A stretch of 64,000 nucleotides of DNA from Candidatus Omnitrophota bacterium. Lineage in GTDB: Bacteria; Omnitrophota; Gorgyraeia; JAHJTE01. The DNA lies in the NCBI GenBank assembly GCA_040753675.1, contig JBFMEB010000005.1:2303-66302 (forward strand), given 5' to 3'. The stretch's first letter is position 1, and each line of letters starts with the position of its first letter. The notes below the pieces were generated by a model. It saw only the letters and a list, made by a program, of their open reading frames with translations, did not search any database and was not told the DNA's origin. Below, piece after piece: positions 1,159-26,367 of this stretch. A program made the translations under genes and the position numbers.

Positions 1159-1381
1159 TTTGTCTATTTTCTGATTTTTTTGCTTTTACTTGCAGATGGG
1201 TTAGTTGGTAAGACTCTATTTGGACTATTAAAAAAGATAAATTTAATTTATATGCTACACAGATTAACACAGATGAGATGCTACAAGATGAACACAGATG
1301 TTGGGTTAAACTACCTGTGTTTATCTACTTTTTTTAATCTGTGTCCATCTGTGCAATGTTTTTTATTTAATTGACAAAAAA

Positions 1382-3254: not shown

Positions 3255-3255
3255 A

Positions 3256-4521: not shown

Positions 4522-4560
4522 CCTTTATTTACAATCTAAGATAAAAAAACTCTTGTGGGC

Positions 4561-4681: not shown

Positions 4682-4712
4682 AAATAAAATCAGATTTAAA
4701 GAGAGGTTTAAT

Positions 4713-6283: not shown

Positions 6284-6284
6284 A

Positions 6285-7043
6285 ATGGATATCTTAAAAA
6301 GAATAATCAAAAATAAATTAATTGAGATAAAAAAAGCGAAACAAGTAAGGCCTTTAAAGCATCTAATTTTATATGTAAATAAATGTCCAAAGCCGCGGGA
6401 TTTTAAAAAAGCAGTTTCTAAGAAAGGCAGAGTCTGTATTATTGCTGAAATTAAAAAGGCTTCGCCTTCAGTTGGAGTTATTCGTAGGGATTTTAACCCG
6501 ATAAAGTTAGCTAAAGCTTTAGAAAAAGCTGGCGCAGATGCATTATCTGTTCTTACGGATAAAAAATTTTTTAAAGGAGACCTTTCTTATATATCAAAAA
6601 TTAAAAGGAAGGTCAAACTGCCAATTTTAAGGAAGGATTTTATTATTGATGAGTATCAGGTTTACGAATCACGCGCCTTTAGAGCAGATGCAATTCTTTT
6701 GATAGCCAGGATAATTACGGGGAATAAACTTAAAAAACTTTATAATTTGGCAAAAAGTTTAGGCTTGGCTTGTCTGGTAGAGGCCTATTCAAAAAGCGAT
6801 TTAAAGAAGGCATTAAAGATTAGCCCTGAGATTATTGGCATCAATAATAGAAATTTGAAAGATTTTAGCTTAGATTTGAATACCACTTTTAGGTTAGCCA
6901 AATTTATCCCCAAGGGAAAGATTGTTGTCAGCGAGAGCGGATTTGAGGACTTCAGTCATTTAAAAAATCTAAGAGACAGGAACATTAATGCTGTATTAAT
7001 CGGTGAAGCTTTTATGAGAATGAAATCGATTCATATAGCATAG
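6285..7043 (+). CDS. trpC: Indole-3-glycerol phosphate synthase
   Basis: 252 aa with IAEIKKASPSVG and INNRNL motifs typical of IGPS. Confidence 0.92.
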   Translation: MDILKRIIKNKLIEIKKAKQVRPLKHLILYVNKCPKPRDFKKAVSKKGRVCIIAEIKKASPSVGVIRRDFNPIKLAKALEKAGADALSVLTDKKFFKGDLSYISKIKRKVKLPILRKDFIIDEYQVYESRAFRADAILLIARIITGNKLKKLYNLAKSLGLACLVEAYSKSDLKKALKISPEIIGINNRNLKDFSLDLNTTFRLAKFIPKGKIVVSESGFEDFSHLKNLRDRNINAVLIGEAFMRMKSIHIA

Positions 7044-12079: not shown

Positions 12080-13054
12080 GTGGATTGGTCTAAAAAAGTA
12101 ATTTTGTTAACTGGTGGGACAGGTTCATTTGGGCAGAAATTTACTGAAGTCATGCTTAAAAAATATAGACCCAAAGTTATAAGAATTTTTAGCCGCGATG
12201 AATTGAAACAGTGGGATATGGAGAAAAAGTTTAATAACCATAGACAGTTAAGATTTTTCATTGGCGATGTTCGGGATAAAAATAGATTAGAGCGTGCAAT
12301 GGATGGAACTAATATTGTAGTACACGCTGCTGCCCTAAAGCAAGTACCTTTATGTGAATACAATCCATTTGAGGCAGTGAAAACAAATATTCTTGGTGCT
12401 CAAAATGTTATCGAAGCGGCTATTGATCATAACATAGAAAAAGTTATGGCGATAAGCACAGATAAAGCAGTAAATCCTGTGAATTTATATGGTGCAAGCA
12501 AGATGTGCATGGAAAAACTATTTATTGCTGCAAATGCTTATGTGGGATCTAAAAGAAAGACAAAGATGTCCTCTGCCCGTTATGGGAATGTAATAGGCAG
12601 TAGAGGCAGTATCATTCCATTGCTTAAGGAGCAAAGGTTAAGCGGAACAATTACGATTACGGATAGAAGGATGACACGTTTCTGGATTACGCTTGAACAT
12701 GGCGTAGAATTTGTAATTCAATGCATAGAAAAAATGCATGGAGGCGAGGTATTTGTGCCAAAGGTACCTAGCATGAGGATTATGGATTTAGCAAAGACAA
12801 TCGCTCCAAGATGTAAAATAAAATATATTGGAATACGTCCAGGTGAAAAAATTCATGAATGTCTGCTGACTGAGGATGAGTCGGGGCATGCATTGGAATA
12901 TAAGGATTTATTTGTAATCATACCTGATCATCCATGGTGGTCTTTTGATAATTGGAAGGATGGAAAGAAGCTTTCTCAGGGATTCAAATATACAAGTGAT
13001 TCAAACCCTCACTGGTTAAACGAAAAGGAATTACTCAAGATGATAGAGGAGTAA
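12080..13054 (+). CDS. pseB: UDP-N-acetylglucosamine 4,6-dehydratase (inverting), PseB/FlaA1-type short-chain dehydratase
   Basis: VILLTGGTGSFGQKF, 324 aa, Polysacc_synt_2-like, with catalytic Y..K (YGASKMCMEK). Followed by a pseC-like gene. Confidence 0.82.
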   Translation: MDWSKKVILLTGGTGSFGQKFTEVMLKKYRPKVIRIFSRDELKQWDMEKKFNNHRQLRFFIGDVRDKNRLERAMDGTNIVVHAAALKQVPLCEYNPFEAVKTNILGAQNVIEAAIDHNIEKVMAISTDKAVNPVNLYGASKMCMEKLFIAANAYVGSKRKTKMSSARYGNVIGSRGSIIPLLKEQRLSGTITITDRRMTRFWITLEHGVEFVIQCIEKMHGGEVFVPKVPSMRIMDLAKTIAPRCKIKYIGIRPGEKIHECLLTEDESGHALEYKDLFVIIPDHPWWSFDNWKDGKKLSQGFKYTSDSNPHWLNEKELLKMIEE

Positions 13055-13055
13055 G

Positions 13056-14207
13056 GTGAGATTTATACCATATGGTCATCATACAATAGGTAGAGATGAT
13101 ATACGTGCCGTAGTAGATGTATTGAATTCTGATTGGATTACTCAAGGTTCAAAGATAGGAGAATTTGAAGATGCTGTCTGTAAGTATACGGGTGCAAAAT
13201 ATGCGGTAGCAGTAAATTCAGGGACAGCAGCTCTTCATGCAGCCAGTTTTGCTGCCGGTATAAAATGCAAAGATGAAGTTATTACATCTCCAGTAACTTT
13301 TCTGGCTACAGCAAATTGTATAGTTTACCAGAAAGCCAAACCTGTATTTGCAGATATCAATGCCAATAGTTTAAATATAAACCCTGAAGAGATAGAGAGA
13401 AAAATAACTCGTAGGACAAAAGCTATAATCGCCGTTCATTTCGCAGGTTTTCCTTGCAATATGGATAAGATTTTAAGTATTGCAAAGAAGAACCGGCTTA
13501 TTGTTATTGAAGATGCATCACATGCTTTGGGTGCGCAATATAAAGGCAGAAAGATTGGGTCAATTGGCAATATGACTACCTTTAGCTTTCACCCTTTGAA
13601 GTCTATTACTACAGGTGAAGGCGGAATGATATTAACTAACAATAAGAAATTATATACTCGTTTACTCTGTTTTAGAAATCATGGGATAGTAAAGAATAAA
13701 AAGAAGTTGCGCAAGATCGGTCCTTGGTATTATGAGATGCAGAATTTAGGTTATAATTACCGGATTACTGATTTTCAATGCGCATTAGGTATAAACCAAC
13801 TGGCAAAATTAGATAAATTTATTAGAAGGCGCGAAGAGATTGCCATTCGTTATAATGAATTATTTAAAGATATAGATAATTTTATAGAATTTCCTCAAGA
13901 AGTTCCAAATTATATTAAGCATGCCTGGCATCTTTATATTATTCAGTTAAGATTGGATAGGTTAAAAATAAGCAGGAAAAAATTTTTCAATATTTTGCGT
14001 AATAAGAATATTGGAGTTCAGGTGCATTATATCCCGATACACTTACAACCTTTTTATAAAAGAAATTTTGGTTATAAGAAGGGAGATTTTCCTCAGGCAG
14101 AGAGATTTTATGAAAGAGCAATAACTTTACCCATCTTTCCAGCATTGGCAAATAAAGATATAGACAGGATTGCTAAAACAGTTAAGAGTTTGGTGAAAAA
14201 TAGATGA
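13056..14207 (+). CDS. pseC: UDP-4-amino-4,6-dideoxy-N-acetyl-beta-L-altrosamine transaminase (PseC-like DegT aminotransferase)
   Basis: MRFIPYGHHTIGRDDIRAVVDVLNSDWITQG is the characteristic PseC N-terminus. The PLP lysine context is SFHPLKSI. Confidence 0.82.
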   Translation: MRFIPYGHHTIGRDDIRAVVDVLNSDWITQGSKIGEFEDAVCKYTGAKYAVAVNSGTAALHAASFAAGIKCKDEVITSPVTFLATANCIVYQKAKPVFADINANSLNINPEEIERKITRRTKAIIAVHFAGFPCNMDKILSIAKKNRLIVIEDASHALGAQYKGRKIGSIGNMTTFSFHPLKSITTGEGGMILTNNKKLYTRLLCFRNHGIVKNKKKLRKIGPWYYEMQNLGYNYRITDFQCALGINQLAKLDKFIRRREEIAIRYNELFKDIDNFIEFPQEVPNYIKHAWHLYIIQLRLDRLKISRKKFFNILRNKNIGVQVHYIPIHLQPFYKRNFGYKKGDFPQAERFYERAITLPIFPALANKDIDRIAKTVKSLVKNR

Positions 14208-15190
14208 GAGTATTAGTAATCGGTTGCGGATCAATAGGAGAAAGGCACATACAGAATTTAAGAAAATTAAAGATAGGGGAGATTTTAATATCCGACATAG
14301 ATAAGAAGAGACTTCTTTATGTATCAAGAAAATATAAAATTAGCCTCATATTTAATAATTTTAAGGATGCTTTAGAGAAAAAGCCTGATGCGGCAATAAT
14401 CTCTACGCCTCCCAATTCACACATCCCCATAGGGCTGGCAGTAGTTAATAGTGGGGTCCATGCTTTTATCGAAAAACCTCTTTCGGATAGACTAAAAGGA
14501 ATAGATGAATTTATTAAGGAATCAAAAAAGACAAAATTAGTAATTTTTATTGGGTATAATTTACGTTTTCATCCCGGCCTGCAGTTAGTTAGAAAAATCT
14601 TAACTAAAGGAACTATCGGCCGTATCCTTTGCGCCAGGGCAGAATTTGGGCAAAATCTTACCCAATGGAGACCTAATCAGGATTACCGGCGCAGTTATAG
14701 CGCTAAAAAAGCAATGGGCGGAGGGATTATTCTCGAATCTTCCCATGAATTAGATTATCTTTCTTGGCTAATCGGAGATATAAAAAATATTAATTGCTTT
14801 GCCAAAAAGGTTAGTACCTTAGAGGTAGATACTGAGGATACTGCCCAGATTCTGTTAGAGTTTAAGAGCGGTGTCATTGCCCAGGTTCATCTTGATTTTA
14901 TTCGCTATGATTATTCCCGTAATTGCGAGCTGATAGGAGACAAGGGGACGATAATCTGGGATTATTCCAAAAGTCAAGTCAAAGTCTATATTGCGGATAA
15001 AAAAAAATGGAAAATATTTAATGTAAACTTCAAACCGAATAATATGTATCTTGAAGAGTTGAGACATTTTATCAACTGCATCTTAAAAAAACAAAGGCCT
15101 TTAATTAGCGCAGAGGAAGGCAGAAAGATATTGAGAGTAGCTTTGGCAGCAAAAAGGTCTGCAAAAACGGGCAAAAAGGTCTCATTATGA
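14204..15190 (+). CDS. Gfo/Idh/MocA family oxidoreductase
   Basis: MRVLVIGCGSIGERH Rossmann, EKPLSD motif. 328 aa. Confidence 0.8.
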   Translation: MRVLVIGCGSIGERHIQNLRKLKIGEILISDIDKKRLLYVSRKYKISLIFNNFKDALEKKPDAAIISTPPNSHIPIGLAVVNSGVHAFIEKPLSDRLKGIDEFIKESKKTKLVIFIGYNLRFHPGLQLVRKILTKGTIGRILCARAEFGQNLTQWRPNQDYRRSYSAKKAMGGGIILESSHELDYLSWLIGDIKNINCFAKKVSTLEVDTEDTAQILLEFKSGVIAQVHLDFIRYDYSRNCELIGDKGTIIWDYSKSQVKVYIADKKKWKIFNVNFKPNNMYLEELRHFINCILKKQRPLISAEEGRKILRVALAAKRSAKTGKKVSL

Positions 15191-17244
15191 GAAAAGTCAT
15201 AGCAATAATCCAGGCAAGGATGGGTTCAAGCAGACTTGCGAATAAGGTATTAAAAGATATATCTGGTAAACCTATGCTCTGGCATGTAGTTGAGCGTACG
15301 CAGAGAGCAAAATCTGTTAACTTGGTTGTTTTAGCCACTTCTACCAATGTTTTAGATGACCCAATAGAGGAATTTGCCAAGAAGAACAACTTAAATATTT
15401 TTCGCGGATCGGAAGAAGACGTCTTGGATAGATATTACCGGGCTGCAAAAAAATTCAAGGCCGATATAGTTGTAAGGATTACAGGTGATTGTCCGCTAAT
15501 TCCTCCCGAAATCATTGATAAGGTAGTTAGGACTTTTCTTAAGGGCAAGTGCGACTTTGTTACTAATACAATCATCTACACCTATCCAGATGGTTGCGAC
15601 GTAGAAGTTTTTTCTTTTAAAGCACTTCTAAAATCTTGGAAAGAGTCTAGTGAGCCAATCGAGAGGGAACACGTTTCAGTCTATATTAGAAATTCTAATA
15701 GGTTTAAAATGAAAAACGTCAGGGATGAAACTTCGCTTGCTTCTGGAGCATACCATTGGTCTGTTGATAGAATTGAAGACTTGAAGTTTGTTAGAGAAGT
15801 ATATAAGCATTTATATAAAGATGGCAGGATATTTTCTTATGAAGATATCATTGATTTATTAAGACGACACCCTGAGATTAAAGAGATAAATAAGCAGGCA
15901 ATATCAAATGAGGGATATTATAGGAGTTTATTGAAGACACCTAAAATTAAACCAAAAAAAATAGCAATTAAAAAATCACTTTTGTTGAAAGATAAAGCAC
16001 GGAAGTTGATTCCCGGATGTAGCCAGACATTCAGTAAGGGCCCGTCTCAATTCGTGCAAGGGATCGCTCCTGTTTTTTTAGAAGATGCCAAAGGTTGTCG
16101 TGTTCGGGATGTTGATGGTAATGAATATATCGACTATGCTATGGCTCTCGGTCCGGTAGTTTTAGGTTACAACTATCCTTCCGTATCTGAGGCGGTTAAA
16201 AAGACTTTGGAAAAAGGCACTACTTTCACTCTGCCAAATAGATTAGAGGTGGAATTATCTGAAATTTTATGCGAGATAATTCCCTGCGCACAAATGGTCC
16301 GTTTTGGCAAGAATGGATCAGATGTAACTTCCGGTGCGGTTAGAGTTGCACGCGCCTACACAGGTAAGGATAAAGTTGCCTGCTGCGGCTATCACGGTTG
16401 GCAGGACTGGTATATTGCGACTACATCCAGAGATAGAGGCATTCCCGAAGCAGTGAAAAACTTAAGCTTAACCTTTGAATATAATAAAATCGAAACCTTA
16501 GAAAAAGTTTTTGCGCAAAATTTGAATCAGATTGCCTGCGTAATTATGGAACCTGTTGGAGTTATTGAGCCGAAAGATAATTTCTTAGAGAAGGTCAAGG
16601 AACTAACCCATAAAAATGGTTCAATATTGATATTTGATGAGGTTATTAGCGGATTCCGTTTCGCATTAGGTGGTGCAGGAGAATATTTTAATGTGATTCC
16701 TGACTTGGCGTGTTTTGGTAAGGCGATGGGGAACGGTTTTCCCATATCAGCGGTTGTAGGTAAAAAAGAGATTATGAAATTATTTGAAGAGGTATTTTAC
16801 TCTTTTACCTTTGGGGGTGAAATCGTTTCTATCGCTGCTGCTATAGCAACAATTAAAGAGCTAAGAAAAAAAAGTGTTATAAGATATCTTTGGAGTCAAG
16901 GAAGAAAAATAAAAGACGGATTCAATGTTTTGGTAAAAGAGTACAGTTTAGAAAATCACATGCAATGTAGAGGACTCCCCCCCAGAACCGTAATTACATT
17001 CAAAGACGAGAAAGGCGACGATGGTCTATTGTTAAAAAGTTTATTTCAACAAGAATGCATAGACAGAGGAATCCTCTTTACCTCTGCGCATAATATCTGT
17101 TTTAGCCATTCAGATAAAGATATTGATTATACCTTGCGAGTTTATAATACAGTTTTAGAAATAATTAAAGGAGCCGTTCTTAGGGGCAGAGTCAAAAAGA
17201 TGCTTAAAGGCGAGATGCTTAAGCCTATATTTAGAAAAGTCTGA
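15187..17244 (+). CDS. pseF: Fusion protein: N-terminal acylneuraminate/pseudaminate cytidylyltransferase (PseF/NeuA-like, CMP-sugar synthase) plus C-terminal class-III (GSA-aminomutase/HemL-like) PLP aminotransferase
   Basis: N-terminal VIAIIQARMGSSRLANKVLKDISGKPML (CTP_transf_3 signature) for about 230 aa, then a linker. Residues about 270-685 show an aminotransferase class III pattern (GYHGWQDWY, FDEVISGFR, ACFGKAMGNGFP with the PLP Lys). Confidence 0.8.
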   Translation: MRKVIAIIQARMGSSRLANKVLKDISGKPMLWHVVERTQRAKSVNLVVLATSTNVLDDPIEEFAKKNNLNIFRGSEEDVLDRYYRAAKKFKADIVVRITGDCPLIPPEIIDKVVRTFLKGKCDFVTNTIIYTYPDGCDVEVFSFKALLKSWKESSEPIEREHVSVYIRNSNRFKMKNVRDETSLASGAYHWSVDRIEDLKFVREVYKHLYKDGRIFSYEDIIDLLRRHPEIKEINKQAISNEGYYRSLLKTPKIKPKKIAIKKSLLLKDKARKLIPGCSQTFSKGPSQFVQGIAPVFLEDAKGCRVRDVDGNEYIDYAMALGPVVLGYNYPSVSEAVKKTLEKGTTFTLPNRLEVELSEILCEIIPCAQMVRFGKNGSDVTSGAVRVARAYTGKDKVACCGYHGWQDWYIATTSRDRGIPEAVKNLSLTFEYNKIETLEKVFAQNLNQIACVIMEPVGVIEPKDNFLEKVKELTHKNGSILIFDEVISGFRFALGGAGEYFNVIPDLACFGKAMGNGFPISAVVGKKEIMKLFEEVFYSFTFGGEIVSIAAAIATIKELRKKSVIRYLWSQGRKIKDGFNVLVKEYSLENHMQCRGLPPRTVITFKDEKGDDGLLLKSLFQQECIDRGILFTSAHNICFSHSDKDIDYTLRVYNTVLEIIKGAVLRGRVKKMLKGEMLKPIFRKV

Positions 17245-17263: not shown

Positions 17264-17938
17264 ATGAACAAATTCGATGAATTAAGTTCCACTTATAAGT
17301 CTATATTAGATCACGATGTTAGATTTTCAGGTGAAAATGCCGAATATTTTGCCCTATATAAAGCTGAATATATAAAAAAATACCTCGGCAGTAATTTTAG
17401 AGGCCGCATTTTGGATTATGGGTGCGGCGTGGGCCTTGTTATAAAATTTCTGAGATCTCTTTTTGACAAGAAATATGTAGAAATAATAGGGTTTGATAAT
17501 TCGTTAGCTTCCATAAAACAATGTCGCAACTACATAGAAGGTGCTAGATTTACAAGTAATGATACTGATTTAGAACAAGAATTTTTTGATACAGTAATTA
17601 TGGCTAACGTCCTACATCATATAGATATAGCTGAAAGAGGCAAGATTTTAAAAAAGGCTATCACATTTTTAAAGAAAGGCGGTTATATTTTTATTTTTGA
17701 GCACAATCCTTACAATCCTATAACTAGAATGGTGGTAAAATCATCTCCCATCGATGAGAAGGCATCGCTGGTTAGTGCCAGGGATATTATGAGATTGTTA
17801 CGAAGTCTCTATATTGATATTCATAAAAAACGGTATATAGTATTCTTTCCAAGATTACTTAAAAAACTTAGGTTTCTTGAGCCAATAATGGGCTATATCC
17901 CCATAGGTGCGCAATATGTTTATGTGGGGCAAGTATAG
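17264..17938 (+). CDS. Class I SAM-dependent methyltransferase
   Basis: Motif I ILDYGCGVGL. 224 aa. Confidence 0.75.
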   Translation: MNKFDELSSTYKSILDHDVRFSGENAEYFALYKAEYIKKYLGSNFRGRILDYGCGVGLVIKFLRSLFDKKYVEIIGFDNSLASIKQCRNYIEGARFTSNDTDLEQEFFDTVIMANVLHHIDIAERGKILKKAITFLKKGGYIFIFEHNPYNPITRMVVKSSPIDEKASLVSARDIMRLLRSLYIDIHKKRYIVFFPRLLKKLRFLEPIMGYIPIGAQYVYVGQV

Positions 17939-17980
17939 CAATTCGAGTTAAGTGTTGTACAAAAATATTGGAGAGATGAA

Positions 17981-18427
17981 ATGAAAAAAATGTTGGTTCT
18001 TAATGGGCCAAATCTTAACATGTTCGGTAAGCGGGATCCCTCGTACTACGGTACCATCACCTTAAAGGAAATTAATGAGAAGATCGAGGAATTAGCCCTG
18101 GAACTCGGGTTTGCGGTAGAATGCTTCCAAACAAACCATGAGGGGATAATGGTGGAAAAAATACACGGGATCCGAGAAGAAGATGTTGATGCCCTGATTA
18201 TCAATGCTGGGGCGTGGACCCATTACAGCTACGCCATCATGGATGCTTTGGCTATCATTAAAGTGCCGATCATCGAGGTGCATATGTCTAATATTCACAC
18301 TAGGGAGGTATTTCGGCATTATTCAGTAATTGCGCCGCTGGCGAAGGGGCAAATCACTGGATTCGGGCTGAACAGTTATCTATTGGGCTTGAGAGCTGCA
18401 TGGGATTTGATCAAAGATAATAAATAG
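17981..18427 (+). CDS. aroQ: Type II 3-dehydroquinate dehydratase
   Basis: MLVLNGPNLNMFGKRDP...HMSNIHTRE, canonical type II DHQase, 148 aa. Confidence 0.9.
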   Translation: MKKMLVLNGPNLNMFGKRDPSYYGTITLKEINEKIEELALELGFAVECFQTNHEGIMVEKIHGIREEDVDALIINAGAWTHYSYAIMDALAIIKVPIIEVHMSNIHTREVFRHYSVIAPLAKGQITGFGLNSYLLGLRAAWDLIKDNK

Positions 18428-18490
18428 CACGCGTCATAATGACGTTTAGTTAGATAAATTTTAGTCAATATCAAAAAGAGAAAGGTAGCA

Positions 18491-19513
18491 ATGAATATCT
18501 TAATTTACGGTGCCGGTGCAATTGGATGTCACATTGCGTATTGTATGTATGTAACACGACATACTCCATATCTTATTGCGAGAGGGCAGCATTATGAGCA
18601 AATGAAAAAATATGGCATGCACATCAAGATATGTGATAATGAAATATTAAAGGATGAAAAATTTATCAAGGAAGATTCTAGGTTTTATATTGTAAACGAT
18701 GTGAACAAAGTAAAAGATACCAAAATGGACTATATTTTCATAACCGTCAAATTGAACGATTACAATGACAAAACACTCCAGGATCTATATCCATTTATGG
18801 GGAAAGACACAGCTGTTATTCCTCCTTGCACAGAACTTCCTTTCTGGTGGTTTTATGATCTTAATGGAAAATCTAATGAGAAATACAAAGATATTGATTT
18901 CAACCCAGAGGTAAGTAGGTATTTCATTAGAGAGAATATTATCGGCATGACCATGTGGCTATCCTCTGTTATAGAGAGTCCGGGCCACGTATGCGTTAAA
19001 CATGTCCAGAGAGGCTATCCATTGAAAGAACTATATCCGAATATGAAAGAGCGCGCAGAAAAGCTGAGAAGTATTTTTCAGATAACCTGTATGTCACCCG
19101 TTGTGGATAATATCAGAAGCGAAATCTTCATTAAATCCATAAATGCATTTGCTTTTAACTTAGTTGCTTTAGATAGGGAATGCGATAATGTACAATTAAG
19201 TCATGACAAATATGGCCAAGATTGTATCCGAAAGATTATGATAGAAGGCGAGCAGATCCTTCGAATCCTAAATATCCCAGTTATCCAAGAAATTGAGGAT
19301 AGAATTACTCAGACTTTATCCAGTACGAAACATACGATGAGTATGCTTCATGACTACAGGATGGGTAAGCAGATTGAATTAAGTGCTCTGTGGCAGAGCT
19401 TCGATAGTTTTTGCAAGATCTTGGGAATAAATATGGGATATTCTAGAGATATGTATGAAAAGGTAATGGCGAAGATTAGTGCGAAAAAACACGCAACAGT
19501 GTTAAAGAGATGA
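18491..19513 (+). CDS. Ketopantoate reductase (ApbA/PanE) family NAD(P)-dependent 2-ketoacid/hydroxyacid reductase-like protein
   Basis: MNILIYGAGAIGCHIA Rossmann typical of the ApbA family. 340 aa with a C-terminal helical domain. Confidence 0.6.
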   Translation: MNILIYGAGAIGCHIAYCMYVTRHTPYLIARGQHYEQMKKYGMHIKICDNEILKDEKFIKEDSRFYIVNDVNKVKDTKMDYIFITVKLNDYNDKTLQDLYPFMGKDTAVIPPCTELPFWWFYDLNGKSNEKYKDIDFNPEVSRYFIRENIIGMTMWLSSVIESPGHVCVKHVQRGYPLKELYPNMKERAEKLRSIFQITCMSPVVDNIRSEIFIKSINAFAFNLVALDRECDNVQLSHDKYGQDCIRKIMIEGEQILRILNIPVIQEIEDRITQTLSSTKHTMSMLHDYRMGKQIELSALWQSFDSFCKILGINMGYSRDMYEKVMAKISAKKHATVLKR

Positions 19514-19530: not shown

Positions 19531-21111
19531 ATGGATATCATTCATTATCTTATTAATAATGTAGAGCGGTTTGCGGATAAAACTGCCATCATTTTTGCTG
19601 ATACCTTCTTATCTTACTCTGAATTTGCTGAAAAAACGCGCAGGCTAGCCGGCACCTTGAGCACAATAGGTGTCAGGAAAGGAACTCACATAGGCCTGCT
19701 TCTAAATAATTCTGTAGAGTTCGCAATAACCATGTTTGCTGCTGCTGATTTGGGCGCAACCATAGTGCCCATGGTTACTACTTTGGGTGATAACGATCTA
19801 CTTACAGCGATAAATTTCACCGATGTCGATTTTATTATTGGGTGGCATACCACCCTAAAGGATGTGTTCTATAGATTGCAGGGTAATTTTCCGCTTTCGC
19901 GTCAACATTGCATTTCTGTTGGCGCAGAGATTGACGGATGTAGGGCATTTAGCGAGATGTTGAACGCTCAGCTGCCAGCTTATGAATTGGGACGTAGGAT
20001 GATTGATGAGGAGACGGATTTTATTCTGACCATGACTTCAGGATCGACCAGTGCTCCTAAGCCTATAGTTTTTACACAAGGCACAAAAATCCGAAGGAGC
20101 TTGGGAGCGCAGGAACTATATAATATCACCGATAACGATGTCACGCTTGTTGGTACTCCTATGTACCATTCCCTTGCTCAACGGCTTGTTTTAATGCCGA
20201 TTATTACCGGAGGAACTTGTGTAATTATGCAGAAATTCACTCCTAATAATTGGCTCACCCACGTCAATAAGCATAAGGTTACTTTCAGCATTGCAGTTTC
20301 CTCCCAATTGGAAATGATATTGCAGGATTTAAAGGAGACAGAGGCTGATTTAAGCTCTTTGCGGTGTATTGTTTCCTGCTGTGCATTGTTAAAAAATGAC
20401 ATTAAATCGCGTTTAATCAAGGAATTAAAATGCCATTTTCACGAGTGTTACGGTACTTCTGAAGTTGGAGTTGTATCTAATCTGGCTCCCGAAGACTCGT
20501 CTAAGAAACTGTCTAGTGTCGGCAAGGCAGCTCCTGGTGTCGAGCTCAAGATCGTTGACGCAAAAGGAAAGCCAGTTGTCAGAGGGGAGATTGGCGAGAT
20601 TACCTGCAAAACGCCAATGCGCTTTTCCCGTTACTACAAGAATGAACAAGCTACCCAAGAGAGTATGGTAGATGGTTTCTTTTGCACTGGGGATATGGGA
20701 TATTTAGATGAGGACAATTACCTTGTTTTTTCTGGCCGCAAGAAAGAGATCATAATCACCGGTGGCATCAATGTCTATCCAACGGATGTTGAAGCTGTCT
20801 TGAATGAGCATCCAAAGGTCAAAGAGTGTGCGGTGATCGGGGTTGAAGATAGAAGGTTCGGGGAAGCCGTCCTGGCGCTGATCATTCCCAGAGAAGGCGA
20901 ACCACTCACCAGCCGCGAACTGCAACGTCACTGCATGTATCGCTTGGCCGACTTTCAGCAACCAATGAGTTACGAGTTTGTTAAAACACTTCCCAGAAAC
21001 GAATTAGGAAAACCTCTCAAACGCAAACTTAAAGAGCAGTTTCAAGGTTATGATGTAAGTGCGGCAGTAAGAAGAATAATGAGTAAGCCTAAGGAAAAAT
21101 ATGGAGAATAA
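19531..21111 (+). CDS. AMP-dependent synthetase/ligase (acyl-AMP / acyl-CoA or acyl-ACP ligase, ANL superfamily)
   Basis: AMP-binding core TSGSTSAPKP, YGTSE and a GDMGYLDEDNYLVFSGRKKE hinge, with a catalytic K in LGKPLKRKL. 526 aa. Confidence 0.85.
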   Translation: MDIIHYLINNVERFADKTAIIFADTFLSYSEFAEKTRRLAGTLSTIGVRKGTHIGLLLNNSVEFAITMFAAADLGATIVPMVTTLGDNDLLTAINFTDVDFIIGWHTTLKDVFYRLQGNFPLSRQHCISVGAEIDGCRAFSEMLNAQLPAYELGRRMIDEETDFILTMTSGSTSAPKPIVFTQGTKIRRSLGAQELYNITDNDVTLVGTPMYHSLAQRLVLMPIITGGTCVIMQKFTPNNWLTHVNKHKVTFSIAVSSQLEMILQDLKETEADLSSLRCIVSCCALLKNDIKSRLIKELKCHFHECYGTSEVGVVSNLAPEDSSKKLSSVGKAAPGVELKIVDAKGKPVVRGEIGEITCKTPMRFSRYYKNEQATQESMVDGFFCTGDMGYLDEDNYLVFSGRKKEIIITGGINVYPTDVEAVLNEHPKVKECAVIGVEDRRFGEAVLALIIPREGEPLTSRELQRHCMYRLADFQQPMSYEFVKTLPRNELGKPLKRKLKEQFQGYDVSAAVRRIMSKPKEKYGE

Positions 21112-22147
21112 AGAACATCATATAGTCATCTCTGTAATTATCCCTATGTACAACATTCAACGCTATATAACTACGTCTTTAAATAGATTAAAATCTCAAA
21201 CCCTATCTCAATATCTTTTTGAGGTAGTTTTGGTTGACGACTCCTCAACAGACGATACTTTTATTATTGCAAAAAGTTTTAGGGGAATAAGAAATTTAAC
21301 AGTAGATAAACTTAAAAAAAACTCAGGGCCGGGCATTGCCAGAAATAGGGGAATTGAGTTAGCAAAAGGAGACTATATACTTTTTCTTGATGGCGATGAT
21401 TATCTTTTAGAGTCTTCTTTAGAAAAGATATTTACCATAATCAATAACCATGACATCGATGTAGTCACTTTTAATTGGACGTATTACAAAGATTTAATAG
21501 AGCAGAATCCAATACCCAGAAGAAGAGATTTAGATGATATGCCTATGGATAGATTTTATTTAACAAAACACTATTTAGGAATGAATATGGATGGCTCTGT
21601 GATTTATACTTTAGTAAAGAAATCTGTATTAGTTAAGAATAACATCAAATTCCCAGCAGGTTTTCATGAAGACATGTCAATTATTTTTCAAATATATTAT
21701 TCTGCCAGAAACATATTAAAGCTAAATGAGATTATCTATATAAAAAGAGATAGGCCTGACTCAATTAATCACACTTTTAGCAAAAAGCATGTCTATGACT
21801 ATCTCAGTGCCTGGCCAAAAATAATGGATTTTTTAATAAAAAAAGAAGGCAGTAGTGCCAAGCATAAATATAGGCAAGACTACTTAAGAGGCATATCAGG
21901 ATTAGTGGCTACGTTGATTAGGAAAAATTTAAATATAAATTCTAAAAATTTTAATAAAAGATTAGAATTATATAAATGTATAGTAAAAAGCTTAAAAGCC
22001 AATAAATATTTAGCCGATATTAAAATGCTTCCCAACATAACAAAAAAAGACAAAATTACGCAACTATTTTTGAGATCAATGTTAGCAAAAGATCTTCCAA
22101 TTGAAAAAAAAGTAGAGTTTTTTGAGGAATGCGGTCTTAACAAATAA
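21101..22147 (+). CDS. Glycosyltransferase family 2
   Basis: ISVIIPMYNIQRY..., DDSSTD and FLDGDD (DxD) motifs. Confidence 0.85.
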   Translation: MENKEHHIVISVIIPMYNIQRYITTSLNRLKSQTLSQYLFEVVLVDDSSTDDTFIIAKSFRGIRNLTVDKLKKNSGPGIARNRGIELAKGDYILFLDGDDYLLESSLEKIFTIINNHDIDVVTFNWTYYKDLIEQNPIPRRRDLDDMPMDRFYLTKHYLGMNMDGSVIYTLVKKSVLVKNNIKFPAGFHEDMSIIFQIYYSARNILKLNEIIYIKRDRPDSINHTFSKKHVYDYLSAWPKIMDFLIKKEGSSAKHKYRQDYLRGISGLVATLIRKNLNINSKNFNKRLELYKCIVKSLKANKYLADIKMLPNITKKDKITQLFLRSMLAKDLPIEKKVEFFEECGLNK

Positions 22148-22204: not shown

Positions 22205-23464
22205 ATGAAAAAGAGTTGGAGCTGCAGTGGTTTACACTACTCAATCTTTGCCGCTCCTGATGTTTTAAGGCATTGTTGTAAAAGATTTTTTGTAAATGGC
22301 CAAATGAGAGGGGATGTAGAGATATTTAAGGTTTTTTCTAACTCGGATATAAGCACTAAAAAAATTTTAGAGCATAAGCAAAAACTATATGAAGATATCA
22401 ATAGCGGCAAAGAAACTCCTTGTAGTAGTTGCCCTTGGATAAAATACGATGATTGGGAGCCGTTTAATAAACTTAAAATAAAGCATCTATCTATAGAAAA
22501 TCACACTGTATGCAATCTAAGATGTACCTACTGCAATGAGACATATTACGGAGGTAAAAAATCTAACTATGATATTATGCATTTATATAAGGAGTTAAAA
22601 TTAAAAGATGCTTTTGATGAAAATATTTCTCTGGTGTGGGGTGGAGGCGAACCGCTTTTATTAAATTCTTTTTATGAAATTTTTTCAACATTAACTCAAG
22701 AGCTTGCCCCATCTCGTAATAACATCTTTACAAATGCCATTATATACAGTGATAGTGTTGCAAAGTATCTAAAAGAGGGCAAAGTTACCATTACAACAAG
22801 TATTGATGCAGGATTTAGGAGTACCTACAATAAAATTAGAGGCTCTGATAAATTAATTACAGTACTGCAAAACTTAAAAAAGTATTATCAATGTGATAAA
22901 GATGGAATTACTGTTAAATATTTACTACTACAAGAAAATAGCAATGAAGATGAAGTTTTAGCTTTTGTAGATAAAATAAAAGAATATGGGCTTAGTGGAT
23001 GTACTTTTCAAATAAGCACGAACTATAAAACCGAACGAATTGATGAAAAAATAGCCAGAACATCAATTTTTCTTTTTAATGAGTTAAAAAAATGTGGTAC
23101 TAAACTCATAAATTTCGATGATCATTTAAGGCCAAGGCTTAATTCAATGAGAGATAGTTTGAATATAAAGAGTAGTTACTCAGATAAAGACGTCATAATC
23201 TGGGGGGCGGGTGATTATGCAGAAATGATGTTAAAAGAGAGCAGCTTCTTTAATAATAGAAATATTAGATGCTTCGTAGATAGTAGTAGACAAAAGCATG
23301 GTAAAAAGTTTGGGCCTTACGAGATAAAGCCACCTAAAGCTGTTTTAGAGAATGAAGATACCTACATATTTATAGCCTCGACAAGCTATTACAGGCAAAT
23401 ATATAGCCAAATCTTAGATATGGGGGTTTCACCAAAAAGAATTATTGACGATGTTGTTATCTAA
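22205..23464 (+). CDS. Radical SAM enzyme (non-B12) with N-terminal Cys-rich segment and C-terminal NeuD/PglD-N-like Rossmann domain
   Basis: CNLRCTYCNE (CxxxCxxC), GGGEPLL glycine-rich SAM motif, N-terminal CSGLH...HCCKRFF...CSSCPW, and a C-terminal IIWGAGDYAEMML...RCFVDSSRQKHGKKFGPYEI...YIFIAS resembling the C-terminus of the regulator at 8642. Confidence 0.78.
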   Translation: MKKSWSCSGLHYSIFAAPDVLRHCCKRFFVNGQMRGDVEIFKVFSNSDISTKKILEHKQKLYEDINSGKETPCSSCPWIKYDDWEPFNKLKIKHLSIENHTVCNLRCTYCNETYYGGKKSNYDIMHLYKELKLKDAFDENISLVWGGGEPLLLNSFYEIFSTLTQELAPSRNNIFTNAIIYSDSVAKYLKEGKVTITTSIDAGFRSTYNKIRGSDKLITVLQNLKKYYQCDKDGITVKYLLLQENSNEDEVLAFVDKIKEYGLSGCTFQISTNYKTERIDEKIARTSIFLFNELKKCGTKLINFDDHLRPRLNSMRDSLNIKSSYSDKDVIIWGAGDYAEMMLKESSFFNNRNIRCFVDSSRQKHGKKFGPYEIKPPKAVLENEDTYIFIASTSYYRQIYSQILDMGVSPKRIIDDVVI

Positions 23465-24961
23465 TAAACATTTTTTAATTATAACTCCTTTGAGGACGGC
23501 TTCGTTGCCATTGGAACCTGCCTTGGGTCCTCTAAGCCTTTATTCATTTGCGGTAAAAAATGGTTTTGATGGTGACTTGCTGGATTTTAACACGATAATT
23601 AGCGAAGAGAATATTCGAGACTACGACGATATTGTAAATACTTCACTCCAGCAATGGCTCAATTCTCATCCAGAGGCAAAAATCGTTGGCATAACTGTAC
23701 TCTTTTCTGGGGTTTTTAGAAGAGCACTTAAAATTGCGAAAGTTGTAAAGAAGATACGCAGTGATGTTTCTGTGGTGATCGGCGGCAACCACCCATCTAT
23801 ATTTCCTAAAGAAATAATAGAAAACTGTCCAGAAATAGACTATGTAGTTATTGGGGAAGGTGAAGAACAATTTTTGAATCTGCTCAAGTTGCACTCACAA
23901 GGGTCTGTTTCTAAAGCCAATCTTGATATAGACAATGGCATTGCCTATAGGTCTGACGGTAAAGTTGTCGTAAAAGAGAAAATACGCTATATATACGATT
24001 TGGGCTCACTAGGTATAACAAATTATGTTCAAGTTAACTTTGCAAAATATCATACTCCAGATATGGATACATGGTATAACCCAAAGAAGCACGACATCAT
24101 ATGCGCAATGCCCATAACTACATCTAGAGCATGTCCCTATAGTTGCAGCTTTTGCAGTATGTATAGAGTAATGGGACGCAAATTTCGTTCCAGACCTGTT
24201 GAGGTTGTGCTGGAAGAATTGAAAATTTTGTATTATGAGCACAATATTAGATATTTTAGAATCATGGATGACTGTTCTACTTTTGACAAGAAAAATTCGA
24301 TGAAGCTGTTTCTTGAGATTGCTAAGAGTGATATGGATTTGTCTTTCGAATTTTATAACGGTTTAAGCATCAGAACACTCGACAATGAACTGATCGATAT
24401 CCTTGTGGAAAATGGCTTAGTGCGAGGAAGTCTACCCATTGAAAGCGGCTCGGAATTTCTTAGAAATAAGATTATGAATAAAAATCTTCCTGAAGATAAA
24501 ATTTATGAAGTATATAAATATTTTGAAAAAAACATCCCCACATATGGCTTATTGGATTTTTTTTGATAGGTCTTCCTGAAGAAACTGTTGAGACATTAGA
24601 GGATACTATTAACATGATCAAAAACTTAAAGACTATTTATCCTATTTTTAATATCCTTGTTCCTTTTCCAGGAACAAGGCTTTGGGAACAGTGCGTTAGA
24701 GATAACTTGCTGCTGATGGATATTAAAGATGTCTGGAAATACCCTTTTTGGGCACATCCGACCACTATTGACAGAGCAGAGAAAGATAGAGGCGAATGGT
24801 GCTCTGAAACTTTTGTCAAAAATGAGCAGGCTTTCCTAATCCAGCCTTACAACCTGAGTTTAGAGCAGCTTGCGTATTATTACAAAAAGCTACTCAATCT
24901 AAGAGCTGAATCATGGCAAAGAATTGAGCAACGGAAGCAACTTCAAGCCAAAATTCGTTGA
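23445..24961 (+). pseudogene. B12-binding radical SAM enzyme interrupted by a frameshift in a T8 homopolymer (two ORFs, 23445-24566 and 24563-24961)
   Basis: The first ORF has a B12-binding domain plus the rSAM motif ITTSRACPYSCSFC and ends LLDFF* inside tttttttt (24557-24564). The second ORF continues with IGLPEETVETLEDTINMIK, the FMIGLPxET region conserved in class-B rSAMs. A +1 T would fuse them as ...LLDFFLIGLPEE. Confidence 0.75.
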
Positions 24962-24972
24962 GAGGTAATGTT

Positions 24973-26085
24973 ATGATTAATAATCCACTACAACTCGCGT
25001 TTATCGGAGGAGGGATAGGCTCTATCGCCGGAACGCCACATTTTGCTGCTGCTTCCATGGATGCTAGATTTAAACTGATCGCCGGAGCGTTTAGCTTAGA
25101 TACGCAAACAAACCTTCAATCGGCTGCAAGATGGGGGATAAAACGATACTATGATTCCTGGCGGGATTTGATTAAAAAAGAAAAAAATAATATCGACGCT
25201 GTCGTTATTCTGACCCCTACTCCGATTCATTCTGATATGATATGTGCTTTATTGGAGCAAAACACCCCCATCATCAGTGAAAAAGCAGTTGTCCAGACAA
25301 TGGAGGAGATTCAAAAACTAAAAAAAATCTATAATCCCAAGGATCACTTTTTGACTGTAATATACAACTATAGCGGCTATCCGCTTATCAGGGAATTAAA
25401 ACAGAGGATTTCCAATGGTGAGCTTGGTAAAATTATCAATATTCGCTTGGAAATGCCCCAAGAGTCTTTTCTAAGGTCCCCCGTCAGCACAAAATACCCT
25501 CAAGATTGGAGACTGCAAGACAAATATATCCCGACAATCTGTCTTGATTTAGGTGTGCATTTACACCAATTGGCTTTCTTTTTAACAGAGATGGAACCCT
25601 GTTCACTTTTTTCAACAATGAAAAACTTTTCAAAGTATTCCGTTATAGACGATGTTGAAATACAACTAAAATACGATAATGGAGCTTCAGGAAATTTTTG
25701 GATGAGCAAGACAGCCATTGGTCACAGAAATGGACTTAGAGTACGTATTTATGGAAAAAAAGCATCAGCACAGTGGTATCAGGCCGAACCAGAAACTATG
25801 GTTTTAAGTTATGTCAATGGAGAAAAAAAGATAATTGAACGCGGCGGCGATAATTTTATTTGCAATAAAAAAAGATACAATAGGATGGTTCCTGGTCATC
25901 CGGCTGGATTTATCGAAGCCTTTGCAAATATATATAGTGATATCGCTGATGCTCTTACAGCGTTTAAAAATAAGAAAAATTATAAAAATCAATATGTTTT
26001 CGATCTCGAGCTGGCAGAAAGAGGATTAAATCTCTTTCACAGAGCCAGAGAATCACATGAACAGAAATGCTGGCTATCGATCTAA
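24973..26085 (+). CDS. Gfo/Idh/MocA family oxidoreductase
   Basis: LQLAFIGGGIGSIAGTPHF Rossmann. The ATG at 24973 is preceded by AGAGG, while the ORF-track start at 24958 is a TTG. Confidence 0.8.
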   Translation: MINNPLQLAFIGGGIGSIAGTPHFAAASMDARFKLIAGAFSLDTQTNLQSAARWGIKRYYDSWRDLIKKEKNNIDAVVILTPTPIHSDMICALLEQNTPIISEKAVVQTMEEIQKLKKIYNPKDHFLTVIYNYSGYPLIRELKQRISNGELGKIINIRLEMPQESFLRSPVSTKYPQDWRLQDKYIPTICLDLGVHLHQLAFFLTEMEPCSLFSTMKNFSKYSVIDDVEIQLKYDNGASGNFWMSKTAIGHRNGLRVRIYGKKASAQWYQAEPETMVLSYVNGEKKIIERGGDNFICNKKRYNRMVPGHPAGFIEAFANIYSDIADALTAFKNKKNYKNQYVFDLELAERGLNLFHRARESHEQKCWLSI

Positions 26086-26100: not shown

Positions 26101-26367
26101 ATGAACCCGCTGGAGGAAAGGATATACATATTCATAGTGGATTATCTAAGCAATATTTCGTCTATACCGTATCAAGATAAAAAAAGTATATTACAATACA
26201 GGTATTTGGATGTTGGGCATATTGATTCATTTGGCATTATAAACTTTATTATTACTCTGGAGGATAAGTTTGGTATTTCCTTGACAGCGCAAGATACAGA
26301 GTCGGATGAATTCAGAAGCATCGCAGGTCTCATAAAAACCATTACCAAAAAGCTTGAGAAAAGATGA
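26101..26367 (+). CDS. Acyl carrier protein-like (phosphopantetheine attachment Ser in GHIDSFGIINF)
   Basis: 88 aa, acidic with a four-helix pattern and a DSxx(I/L) motif. Sits next to an acyltransferase-like gene, with the AMP-ligase upstream. Confidence 0.65.
   Translation: MNPLEERIYIFIVDYLSNISSIPYQDKKSILQYRYLDVGHIDSFGIINFIITLEDKFGISLTAQDTESDEFRSIAGLIKTITKKLEKR

Follow-up and report, generated by a model that had tools for sequence, protein, structure and literature searches.

A probably acquired type II dehydroquinase gene beside a widespread reductase–ligase cassette in an Omnitrophota glycan locus

We analysed a 64-kb stretch of DNA (the window) from a Candidatus Omnitrophota MAG. A glycan locus that spans 57 kb or more of it holds both a type II 3-dehydroquinate dehydratase gene (aroQ) and a gene for a reductase of the ketopantoate reductase (KPR) fold. 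The features referred to below are:

3235–4521: MurA (EPSP-synthase fold; TIGR01072, 552.6 bits)
4713–7043, + strand: trpG/pabA, trpD and trpC, the left border of the glycan locus
12080–17244, + strand: pseudaminic-acid-type genes, namely PseB, PseC, a GFO oxidoreductase and a fusion of a CMP-transferase with a class III aminotransferase
17264–17938, + strand: class I SAM methyltransferase (domain match), the 5' neighbour of aroQ in the window only
17981–18427, + strand: aroQ, type II 3-dehydroquinate dehydratase, 148 aa (PF01220, TIGR01088)
18491–19513, + strand: KPR-fold NAD(P)-dependent reductase, 340 aa (ApbA and ApbA_C)
19531–21111, + strand: acyl-AMP/CoA (ANL) ligase (AMP-binding and AMP-binding_C), a cassette member
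21101–22147, + strand: GT2 glycosyltransferase (domain match), a cassette member
22205–23464, + strand: radical SAM protein with a C2185-like domain (domain match), a cassette member
23445–24566 and 24563–24961, + strand: B12-binding radical SAM methyltransferase-like gene in two pieces, split at a T8 run
24958–26085, + strand: GFO/IDH/MocA oxidoreductase (GFO3; domain match)
26101–26367, + strand: putative acyl carrier protein, 88 aa (motif HIDSFGI)
26364–28217, + strand: AAC(3)-like N-acyltransferase (Antibiotic_NAT) fused to DUF4910/DUF2172 (domain match)
28214–32013, + strand: PseG-like hydrolase, NeuB/PseI-type synthase, GNAT acetyltransferase and a second DUF4910 protein (domain and profile matches)

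The aroQ and KPR-fold reading frames lie exactly where the sequence-only reading had placed them and, as it described, are flanked by the methyltransferase (5') and the acyl-AMP ligase (3'). The gaps between these four + strand genes are 42, 63 and 17 bp. The same reading had found no other aro genes nearby, which holds for the whole 64-kb window, and a domain search of the window returned no DHS dehydratase, AroB, AroE, chorismatase or AHBA synthase. The gene at 3235–4521 was considered as aroA and rejected, since against the aroA model it scores 90.5 bits and its match is to MurA. The trpG/pabA, trpD and trpC genes are chorismate-consuming and have native composition (GC3 0.30–0.35). Across the at least 57 kb of glycan locus, aroQ is the sole gene of non-glycan type. 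A search for a promoter, terminator, riboswitch or tRNA that would set aroQ apart as its own unit or betray a site of insertion gave no signal: promoter- and terminator-like counts are at shuffle expectation, the best + strand promoter-like site (17814–17841) is not significant, and there are no Rfam matches or tRNAs. The split radical SAM gene is an intact 498-aa reading frame in another locus (L093), with 78% and 70% identity to the two pieces.

The AroQ protein matches PF01220 (DHquinase_II) end to end with 190 bits (cut-off 23.3) and TIGR01088 with 187.8 bits (equivalog cut-off 169.85); its best PDB match is 6cv6 (190 bits). The motifs NGPNLN..GKRDPSYYG, INAGAWTHYS and EVHMSNIHTREVFRHYS align with those of the PDB dehydroquinases, and the active-site motifs are intact. 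Mapped by eye onto M. tuberculosis numbering, Arg19, Tyr24, Asn75, His81, Glu99, His101, Ser103, Arg108 and Arg112, which we take to be the catalytic and lid residues, are all conserved. The protein is also equal in length to the known type II enzymes (6cv6 and those of M. tuberculosis, H. pylori and S. coelicolor), and differs from them in its setting, i.e. a nonulosonic-acid decoration cassette, an apparently foreign origin and the lack of nearby aro genes. The earlier assignment as a canonical type II 3-dehydroquinate dehydratase is thus confirmed at the level of profiles and motifs, from which we predict a genuine type II dehydroquinase. We considered a 4-keto-3-deoxy-ulosonic acid, which is an oxa-analogue of dehydroquinate, as the substrate; this is unlikely, as the protein is 78–79% identical to ordinary AroQs and its active site is unchanged.

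The composition of aroQ sets it apart from its surroundings. Its GC3 is 0.537, compared with 0.26–0.44 in the other 39 genes of the window, whose GC content is 36% overall; this is about five sampling standard deviations above the window mean and exceeds every housekeeping gene in the window. The three glycan-locus copies of aroQ all have values of 0.50–0.59, and Desulfobacterota-type homologs have values of 0.53–0.65. Together with KPR and the ligase, aroQ forms a stretch of raised GC3 (0.54, 0.38 and 0.43), with flanks at 0.29 and 0.275. The nearest relatives of the protein (78–79% amino acid and ~75% nucleotide identity) are found in Desulfobacterota-type clusters, where they adjoin genes for Tct, TRAP or ABC transporters, Zn-ADH, AP_endonuc_2, TPP-enzyme and aldehyde dehydrogenase; to judge from these neighbours, the clusters are transporter-linked, catabolic-looking and non-biosynthetic. 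Among the best 120 matches, none of those that are named comes from Omnitrophota. A housekeeping gene would be expected to have host-like composition and relatives that follow the host phylogeny, and aroQ has neither. It appears instead to be a xenolog, acquired from another phylum, with a higher-GC, Desulfobacterota-like donor indicated by its composition and relatives. If so, the plain housekeeping reading fails on this one point. The gene is under purifying selection (dN/dS 0.15–0.22) and has co-diverged with KPR, the two having similar dS.

The KPR-like protein scores 59.3 bits against ApbA and 35.2 bits against ApbA_C, both above the Pfam gathering thresholds, and falls below the cut-off in all ten of the NCBIfam PanE models that it matches (best NF005089, 128.9 bits versus 223). 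At least 230 homologs were found. The best 50 PDB matches of its AlphaFold model (pLDDT 92.4) are all structures of KPR or D-mandelate dehydrogenase, and the model shares the two-domain fold of PanE/ApbA and D-mandelate dehydrogenase (3ghy, 5hws, 3wfi, 5x20) with TM scores of 0.65–0.79. The Rossmann GxGxxG and the positions of the catalytic Lys, Asn, Ser and Glu are shared with the PanE/ApbA family, the invariant K215, N218, S284 and E296 aligning with the KPR catalytic residues. However, identity to the solved PanE/ApbA members is only 13–21%, and the protein has an invariant set of its own (W119, W156, H171-x-QRGYP, R271 and H281). KPR-family reductases usually act on 2-oxo acids, small free ones in the members known to us. 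Since the context here is glycan synthesis rather than pantothenate synthesis, the substrate is probably not ketopantoate. The enzyme is probably a 2-oxoacid reductase.

The reductase gene had been described as stranded in the glycan locus. This description fails: orthologs occur in 91 loci (88 found by KPR seeding and three that bear aroQ, which together are the basis of the counts that follow), in which the gene is one of the core components of a conserved cassette. The carriers are SAR11, Omnitrophota-like and other aquatic bacteria, and the members are a GFO/IDH/MocA oxidoreductase, the KPR-like reductase, the ligase, a putative carrier protein of ~85 aa, an AAC(3)-like N-acyltransferase/DUF4910 protein, GT2, radical SAM and NeuB. 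GFO3 is present in 79/91 loci, directly upstream of KPR, and the ligase in 69/91, usually straight after it. GT2/radical SAM genes occur in 56 of the loci (fused to one another in L001), carrier-protein homologs in at least 45, beside the ligase, NAT/DUF4910 in 39 and NeuB in 35. The KPR-like reductase thus belongs to the core of a widespread and uncharacterised gene set, which is found together with nonulosonic-acid genes of the NeuB type. Our literature search found nothing tying a KPR-type reductase to nonulosonic-acid synthesis.

The window carries every gene of the cassette between 18491 and 32013, with GFO3 displaced downstream of KPR. PseB (488.9 bits, cut-off 407.75) and PseC (494.4 bits, cut-off 423.5) are equivalogs, whilst PseG (127.3 versus 153.55), PseI (304.9 versus 340.25) and NeuB (333 versus 399.65) are all below their equivalog cut-offs. 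With regard to PseH and PseF, the window has a GNAT protein and, separately, a CTP_transf_3 fusion, both of which are assigned by Pfam domains only. The 88-aa frame taken as the carrier has the DS motif noted above and scores 17.6 bits against PP-binding (PF00550; cut-off 20.8). For the ligase, the nearest solved structures are feruloyl- and fatty-acyl-CoA synthetases and MenE, which give no clue to its substrate.

In contrast to the reductase, aroQ is not a regular member of the cassette but a rare, lineage-specific add-on upstream of the KPR-like gene. It is present in 3/91 KPR-ortholog loci, all of one lineage (the window, L171–L173 and L176), and in 0/88 of the KPR-seeded loci. Within this lineage, aroQ is always immediately upstream of KPR, in three arrangements that differ in its 5' neighbour: the methyltransferase, GFO3, or DUF4910 with a short ORF. 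Synteny between the three always breaks just 5' of aroQ, whilst the aroQ–KPR junction is never interrupted; homology of the window with L171 and L176 begins only at ~17949–17973. Close relatives of the cassette lack aroQ. In L001 the KPR is 83–89% identical to those of the AroQ-bearing loci, and in L091–L095 and L166 the ligases are 67–72% identical to that of the window. The GFO3 of L171 is 74–77% identical to the GFO3s of AroQ-less loci, and L171 is therefore an ordinary GFO3–KPR–ligase unit with an inserted aroQ. Within the clade whose KPRs are 79–89% identical, aroQ and the ligase are either both present (the window, L171) or both absent (L001).

We favour, tentatively and at slightly less than even odds (about 0.45), a joint reading in which the KPR cassette N-acylates a pseudaminic-type sugar with a 2-hydroxy acid and the acquired aroQ is not needed by the cassette. 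The KPR-like enzyme would convert a 2-oxo acid into a 2-hydroxy acid by reduction; the ligase would adenylate this acid and load it onto the carrier protein; and the AAC(3)-like transferase would move the acyl group to an amino group of the sugar. Of the three readings proposed from the sequence, adenylation of a 2-hydroxyacid for an N-acyl decoration is the one that the anatomy of the cassette supports best. The cassette works almost everywhere without aroQ, and aroQ therefore lies outside its basic chemistry. The gene would have come by horizontal transfer from the Desulfobacterota-like donor, entering between the GFO and KPR genes in an ancestor of the small Omnitrophota lineage that now carries it, and would since have been inherited alongside KPR and the ligase under purifying selection. 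As the host has native trpG, trpD and trpC, it uses chorismate; most likely, aroQ supplies its predicted dehydroquinase activity to the host's own shikimate pathway from a recombination-prone glycan island. We found no usable literature on shikimate or amino acid biosynthesis in Omnitrophota.

Several observations count against this reading: aroQ is the only gene of non-glycan type in the locus, its junction with KPR is unbroken, the raised GC3 is shared by the two genes and the ligase, and the carrier is below the PP-binding threshold. Moreover, when a specialised cluster contains an additional, acquired copy of an enzyme from a primary pathway, the usual interpretation is precursor supply.

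A precursor-supply role, a weakened form of the diversion proposed from the sequence, is the main alternative, albeit a doubtful one. Here, the acquired AroQ would have been recruited to the nonulosonic-acid decoration cassette and would raise or redirect shikimate-pathway flux for it. A shikimate intermediate or a derived aromatic 2-oxo acid would be reduced and then activated by adenylation, and the 88-aa protein would carry the product until it is N-linked to a pseudaminic-type sugar. In one version, the KPR-like enzyme reduces 3-dehydroshikimate to a shikimate-type acid; in the other, it reduces phenylpyruvate or 4-hydroxyphenylpyruvate to an aryl-lactate. The isolation of aroQ among glycan genes fits this role, as do its donor-like composition, which argues against an ancestral housekeeping copy, the junction with KPR kept in three arrangements, the co-divergence of the two genes under purifying selection, and the joint presence or absence of aroQ and the ligase in the KPR clade above. 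The solved relatives nearest to the KPR-like protein also include D-mandelate dehydrogenase, which takes bulky aryl 2-oxo acids. However, none of the 88 KPR-seeded cassettes has aroQ, close relatives with similar ligases included; no DAHP synthase, AroB, AroE or DHS-modifying enzyme accompanies aroQ here; dehydroquinase is not the flux-controlling step of the shikimate pathway; and 3-dehydroshikimate, unlike the usual KPR-family substrates, is not a 2-oxo acid. We know of no bacterial glycan with a shikimate-derived acyl group, and our literature search found none; nor did it find a dehydroquinase or dehydropantoate paired with nonulosonic or pseudaminic acid. The specific proposal made from the sequence, that dehydroquinate or dehydroshikimate is diverted via KPR and the ligase to a cyclohexane-type acyl group, gains no comparative support from the KPR-seeded loci, and the window has no enzyme of the DHCHC, CHC or AHBA routes.

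SAR11 loci also carry AroE-like and DAHP-synthase-like genes, which we considered as support for a shikimate-derived acid and did not count, as they belong to a separate recurrent module. They occur there with GFO, rSAM/SPASM, DHDPS, an enolase-superfamily protein and CMP-transferases, and without AroB or AroQ, in what looks like a module for ulosonic-acid sugar synthesis.

It is less probable still that GFO3 and KPR edit the nonulosonic acid itself rather than the acyl donor, either by epimerising a ring or side-chain hydroxyl through oxidation and reduction or by reducing the 2-oxo group of the NeuB product, with the ligase, carrier and N-acyltransferase acting separately and AroQ unrelated to KPR. 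Nonulosonic acids are alpha-keto acids, and the position of GFO3 directly upstream of KPR in most loci, the SAR11 gene order GFO3–KPR–NeuB, and the retention of KPR, GFO3 and NeuB in L001, where an ATP-grasp enzyme stands in place of the ligase, are all consistent with such editing. Against it, the ligase co-occurs in 69 of the 91 loci and usually follows KPR immediately, and the KPR-family members known to us act on small free 2-oxo acids. The genes aciA–E for acinetaminic-acid epimerisation were considered as a precedent for GFO plus KPR and set aside as not relevant, AciB and AciE being short-chain dehydrogenases.

An ordinary, vertically inherited housekeeping aroQ that lies by chance in the glycan locus of an operon-poor genome is very improbable: although the enzyme is canonical in every respect, the trp genes do not make up a complete operon but are scattered, and all genes are tightly packed on one strand, the gene has a GC3 above that of every housekeeping gene in the window, its closest relatives lie in Desulfobacterota-type non-biosynthetic clusters with no Omnitrophota among the named matches in the best 120, and it is limited to one small lineage of the cassette. 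This reading, also offered from the sequence, is thus contradicted in part, by the foreign codon composition, the non-biosynthetic relatives in another phylum and the attachment to KPR in three arrangements.

The cassette, more than aroQ, is the useful outcome, since it accompanies NeuB-type genes in at least 91 loci of aquatic bacteria that are very abundant, SAR11 among them. It probably specifies a family of sialic-acid-like surface sugars that bear N-hydroxyacyl groups (or are modified in some other way), and these cell surfaces matter for recognition by phage and grazers. The aroQ insertion is a natural variant of the cassette and, if it feeds the pathway, points to the identity of the acid. 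Were AroQ indeed recruited, the surface glycan would bear an acyl group of a chemical class so far unreported, and glycan loci for ulosonic acids would repeatedly have recruited enzymes of the shikimate family, with AroQ here and the AroE-like and DAHP-synthase-like proteins in SAR11 and other marine loci. If aroQ does not feed the cassette, it is an example of a gene of primary metabolism that was taken up from another phylum and resides in a glycan island.

Parts of this arrangement have been seen elsewhere. Neighbourhoods of DUF4910 (CA_C2195) contain genes for an aminosugar N-acetyltransferase, an ACP, NeuB (SpsE), an ATP-grasp enzyme and a methyltransferase (PMC4000134), and the cassette shares the association of DUF4910, aminosugar N-acyltransferase, ACP (putative in the cassette) and NeuB with these ‘modified polysaccharide’ neighbourhoods; the passages on DUF4910 neighbourhoods in that source make no mention of the GFO–KPR–ligase triad or of shikimate-family enzymes. 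With the shikimate starter-unit pathways (DHCHC in FK506/rapamycin, cyclohexanecarboxylate in ansatrienin, and AHBA with the AroQ-like RifJ), the window has in common a dehydroquinase-type enzyme near an acid-activating ligase; among window ORFs of at least 100 aa there is no chorismatase FkbO, enoyl reductase, aminoDAHP synthase, AroB-like protein or AHBA synthase of those pathways. The tetronate genes of Vibrio cholerae O1 (rfbK–O: an ACP, an AMP-ligase, dehydrogenases and an acyltransferase) build an N-hydroxyacyl group on perosamine; both systems combine a ligase, a carrier (putative in the cassette), reductases and an N-acyltransferase for an amino sugar, whereas the enzyme families used for the redox steps and the sugar differ. 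In the enniatin and beauvericin synthetases, the KPR-family ketoisovalerate reductase KivR supplies D-2-hydroxyisovalerate to an adenylation domain. The product there is a depsipeptide, made by a fungal NRPS, whilst in the cassette the ligase stands alone and is accompanied, within a glycan locus, by a putative carrier and an aminosugar N-acyltransferase, but the logic would be the same: a reductase of the KPR type comes first, and an enzyme that adenylates a 2-hydroxy acid comes after it.

The two genes lie where the sequence-only reading placed them: the ORF calls reproduce its coordinates, and the flanking genes are, as it claimed, a SAM methyltransferase before aroQ and an AMP-binding ligase after the reductase.

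17981-18427, + strand: aroQ, type II 3-dehydroquinate dehydratase, 148 aa (DHquinase_II and NCBIfam aroQ)
18491-19513, + strand: KPR-like reductase, 340 aa (ApbA and ApbA_C domains)

From its sequence, the aroQ product is predicted to be a real dehydroquinase, in agreement with the earlier assignment. The DHquinase_II match spans the entire protein (190 bits), the NCBIfam equivalog score of 187.8 is above the cut-off of 169.85, and the lid and active-site motifs (GKRDPSYYG, INAGAWTHYS and EVHMSNIHTREVFRHYS) are unbroken; among solved structures, 6cv6 scores best (190 bits). Of the sigma-70-like sites on the + strand in 14-27 kb, the best (17814-17841, TTGATA-16-TATAGT, 10/12 matches) lies about 140 bp upstream of aroQ, within the 3'-terminal part of the methyltransferase gene; overall, such sites occur at chance level.

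The window derives from a Candidatus Omnitrophota MAG. All its genes are on the + strand, and they begin with housekeeping functions.

21-7043, + strand: housekeeping block (Rho-like C-terminus, prfA, prmC, murA, trpG/pabA, trpD, trpC)
3235-4521, + strand: MurA, of the EPSP-synthase fold

An aroA identity for the latter was ruled out (TIGR01072 552.6 bits versus aroA 90.5 bits). The native trp genes indicate that the organism consumes chorismate. From 7056 to the window end (at least 57 kb), the genes are of glycan type with the sole exception of aroQ. They include ManC, PseB and PseC (the last two both exceeding equivalog cut-offs), PseG-like, NeuB/PseI-like and GNAT genes, two DUF4910 proteins, several GFO oxidoreductases, glycosyltransferases and a flippase. 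As had been noted, aroQ has no other aro gene nearby: none was found within the 64-kb window, nor were DAHP synthase, AroB, AroE, DHS dehydratase, chorismatase or AHBA synthase.

Several other features of the glycan stretch were recorded. A single 685-aa protein (15187-17244) fuses a CMP-sugar cytidylyltransferase (CTP_transf_3) to a class III, glutamate-1-semialdehyde aminomutase-like aminotransferase; parts of it have homologs in about 8-12 of the KPR loci. Six genes encode B12-binding radical SAM proteins (23445-24566, 35936-37420, 39812-41224, 51271-52686, 52693-54114 and 54145-55572), with a tandem trio at 51-55 kb, an unusual density of putative C-methyltransferases for one locus. At a T8 homopolymer (about 24556-24563) the first of these (23445-24961) falls into two ORFs, of 373 and 132 aa, whilst its ortholog in L093, a comparison locus, is one 498-aa ORF; either a frameshift has made it a pseudogene or the assembly is in error here. 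A second acyl-supply module (43952-47587) comprises GNAT, a MaoC-like dehydratase, an SDR reductase and an FkbH-like protein, so that the glycan locus may install more than one unusual acyl group. L001, an AroQ-less relative, holds a comparable FkbH/ACP/MaoC set. At the distal end, a DUF6044 protein (57194-58930; 564 bits, full length) adjoins an LPG_synthase_TM protein and a polysaccharide deacetylase.

The predicted structure of the KPR-like protein is of high confidence (pLDDT 92.4), and its top 50 PDB neighbours are solely ketopantoate reductases and D-mandelate dehydrogenases (TM 0.65-0.79, 13-21% identity). K215, N218, S284 and E296 are invariant and align with the KPR catalytic residues. 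Since every PanE cut-off is missed, we regard it as a KPR-fold reductase but not PanE. It has >230 homologs. Loci carrying these were drawn from genomes, metagenomes and exact look-ups, and were compared with the window proteins by tblastn and ORF clustering. Among the 91 loci with a KPR ortholog (≥35% identity), GFO3, a particular GFO/IDH/MocA oxidoreductase, is present in 79 and almost always lies immediately upstream of KPR; the ligase is present in 69, mostly immediately downstream. GT2 with a C2185-type radical SAM protein was found in 56/91, a protein of ~85 aa in at least 45/91, an AAC(3)-like N-acyltransferase and/or DUF4910 in 39/91, and NeuB in 35/91. The window's 88-aa counterpart has a carrier-protein-like DS motif and a PP-binding match below threshold. 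Pelagibacterales single-cell genomes are among the carriers, as are numerous contigs of marine and freshwater origin. In L001 (10001-14625), the closest AroQ-less relative, GT2 and the C2185-type radical SAM protein are fused (779 aa), and an ATP-grasp enzyme occupies the position of the AMP-ligase. Far from being 'stranded', the KPR-like gene belongs to a conserved cassette for which no earlier description was found. A 2014 computational study reports that DUF4910 associates with aminosugar N-acyltransferase, ACP and NeuB (PMC4000134); no mention of the GFO-KPR-ligase triad was found in the literature searched. The cassette is probably a variant on N-acyl decoration systems already described.

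aroQ is a rare add-on to this cassette. It occurs in 0/88 loci found through KPR, and is confined to the window and to glycan loci retrieved via AroQ itself, with these gene orders and identities:

L171-L173: GFO3, AroQ (86%), KPR (79%), ligase (72%)
L176: DUF4910, short ORF, AroQ (90%), KPR (89%)

Nucleotide homology between the window and the L171/L176 loci starts 8-32 bp ahead of the start codon of aroQ, so that three arrangements with differing upstream neighbours all break just before aroQ. The GFO3 of L171 shares 74-77% identity with the GFO3 proteins of AroQ-less loci, which marks L171 as an ordinary GFO3-KPR-ligase unit with an inserted aroQ. KPR identity to the window is 83% in AroQ-less L001 and 79% in L171. 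A dedicated AroQ is missing from ~97% of cassette loci, including close relatives with ligases 67-72% identical to the window's.

The gene is also foreign. Its GC3 is 0.537 (0.50 in L171, 0.59 in L176) versus 0.26-0.44 in the other 39 window genes. This agrees with the nearest outside relatives (GC3 0.53-0.65, on loci of 44-53% GC), to which aroQ is 78-79% identical in amino acids and ~75% in nucleotides. The named matches among the best 120 for AroQ are Desulfobacterales, Desulfamplus, Desulfonema, unclassified 'Deltaproteobacteria' and one 'Nitrospira bacterium SG8_3', with none from Omnitrophota. Neighbour-joining groups the five glycan-locus AroQs in a single clade beside the Desulfobacterota-type proteins. 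A dN/dS of 0.15-0.22 points to purifying selection, and dS is similar for aroQ and the adjoining KPR gene, indicating that the acquisition of aroQ preceded the divergence of these lineages and that the gene has been retained from then on. We conclude that aroQ is a xenolog, acquired across phyla. The outside relatives neighbour TctCBA, TRAP or ABC transporters, a Zn-dependent dehydrogenase, an AP_endonuc_2 protein, a TPP enzyme, an acylating aldehyde dehydrogenase, an IolG-like GFO enzyme and, in one case, a molybdopterin oxidoreductase. The Desulfobacterota-type loci (L084:1-14450, L087, L089, L174, L175) are transporter-linked clusters that also hold a CoA-transferase; the Zn-dependent dehydrogenase is a Zn-ADH, the TPP enzyme is acetolactate-synthase/Xsc-like and the aldehyde dehydrogenase SauS-like, with all NCBIfam scores save AroQ's below cut-offs. 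They may encode an anaerobic catabolic route for quinate, shikimate or a cyclitol acid.

In the SAR11 loci L004, L005 and L137, an operon adjoining the cassette encodes an AroE-like dehydrogenase (331 aa, catalytic motifs VTxPxK and NTD retained; 127 bits, aroE cut-off 200) and a type I-beta DAHP synthase (TIGR01361 270.7, cut-off 267.75).

L005:641-8817, - strand: AroE-like module, in nonulosonic-acid loci
L004, L137, L177:9010-19682, L178, L179, L180:8835-13625: other sites of the module

The AroE-like proteins form a separate ~330-aa family with small contig counts, unlike the expectation for a SAR11 housekeeping gene. They turn up again in L177-L180, which are unrelated loci, together with a GFO enzyme, a DAHPS-like enzyme, rSAM/SPASM, DHDPS-family and enolase-superfamily proteins and one or two CMP-transferases; neither AroB nor AroQ is present. 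The module probably makes another 3-deoxy-ulosonic acid sugar rather than performing aromatic chemistry, and given this recurrent pattern we do not count the SAR11 genes as evidence that the acyl group is derived from shikimate. What the module does show is that shikimate-family folds are repeatedly employed in such glycan loci.

Any link of aroQ to the glycan is hypothetical. We favour, with a probability of about 0.45, a joint reading in which aroQ, sited in a recombination-prone island, provides dehydroquinase for the shikimate pathway of the cell itself, as a replacement or redundant copy, and the cassette works by a hydroxyacyl mechanism. A second, less likely reading is that aroQ raises or redirects flux through the shikimate pathway to serve the acyl group. 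Points for it are the retained aroQ-KPR junction, a raised-GC3 stretch comprising aroQ, KPR and ligase, and the position of aroQ as the only non-glycan gene of the locus; extra copies of primary-pathway enzymes acquired within specialised clusters also usually serve the cluster. A direct AroQ to KPR to ligase chain is not general cassette chemistry, given the ~97% of loci without AroQ; the usual KPR-family substrate is a 2-oxo acid, which 3-dehydroshikimate is not. The reading of aroQ as a simple housekeeping gene founders on its xenologous origin. The original observation stands, with its interpretation supported in part.

The part that fares best is its secondary suggestion of a 2-hydroxyacid N-acyl group, which fits the cassette anatomy best. 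A 2-oxo acid would be reduced to a 2-hydroxy acid, which would be adenylated and loaded onto the carrier protein, and the AAC(3)-like transferase would pass the acyl group to a sugar amine. The tight pairing of GFO3 and KPR, and the gene order GFO3-KPR-NeuB in SAR11, suggest another possibility, that these two enzymes edit the nonulosonic acid itself. The hydroxyacyl scheme would resemble KivR-type systems, which supply D-hydroxy acids, and would have a further likeness in the tetronate genes of V. cholerae.
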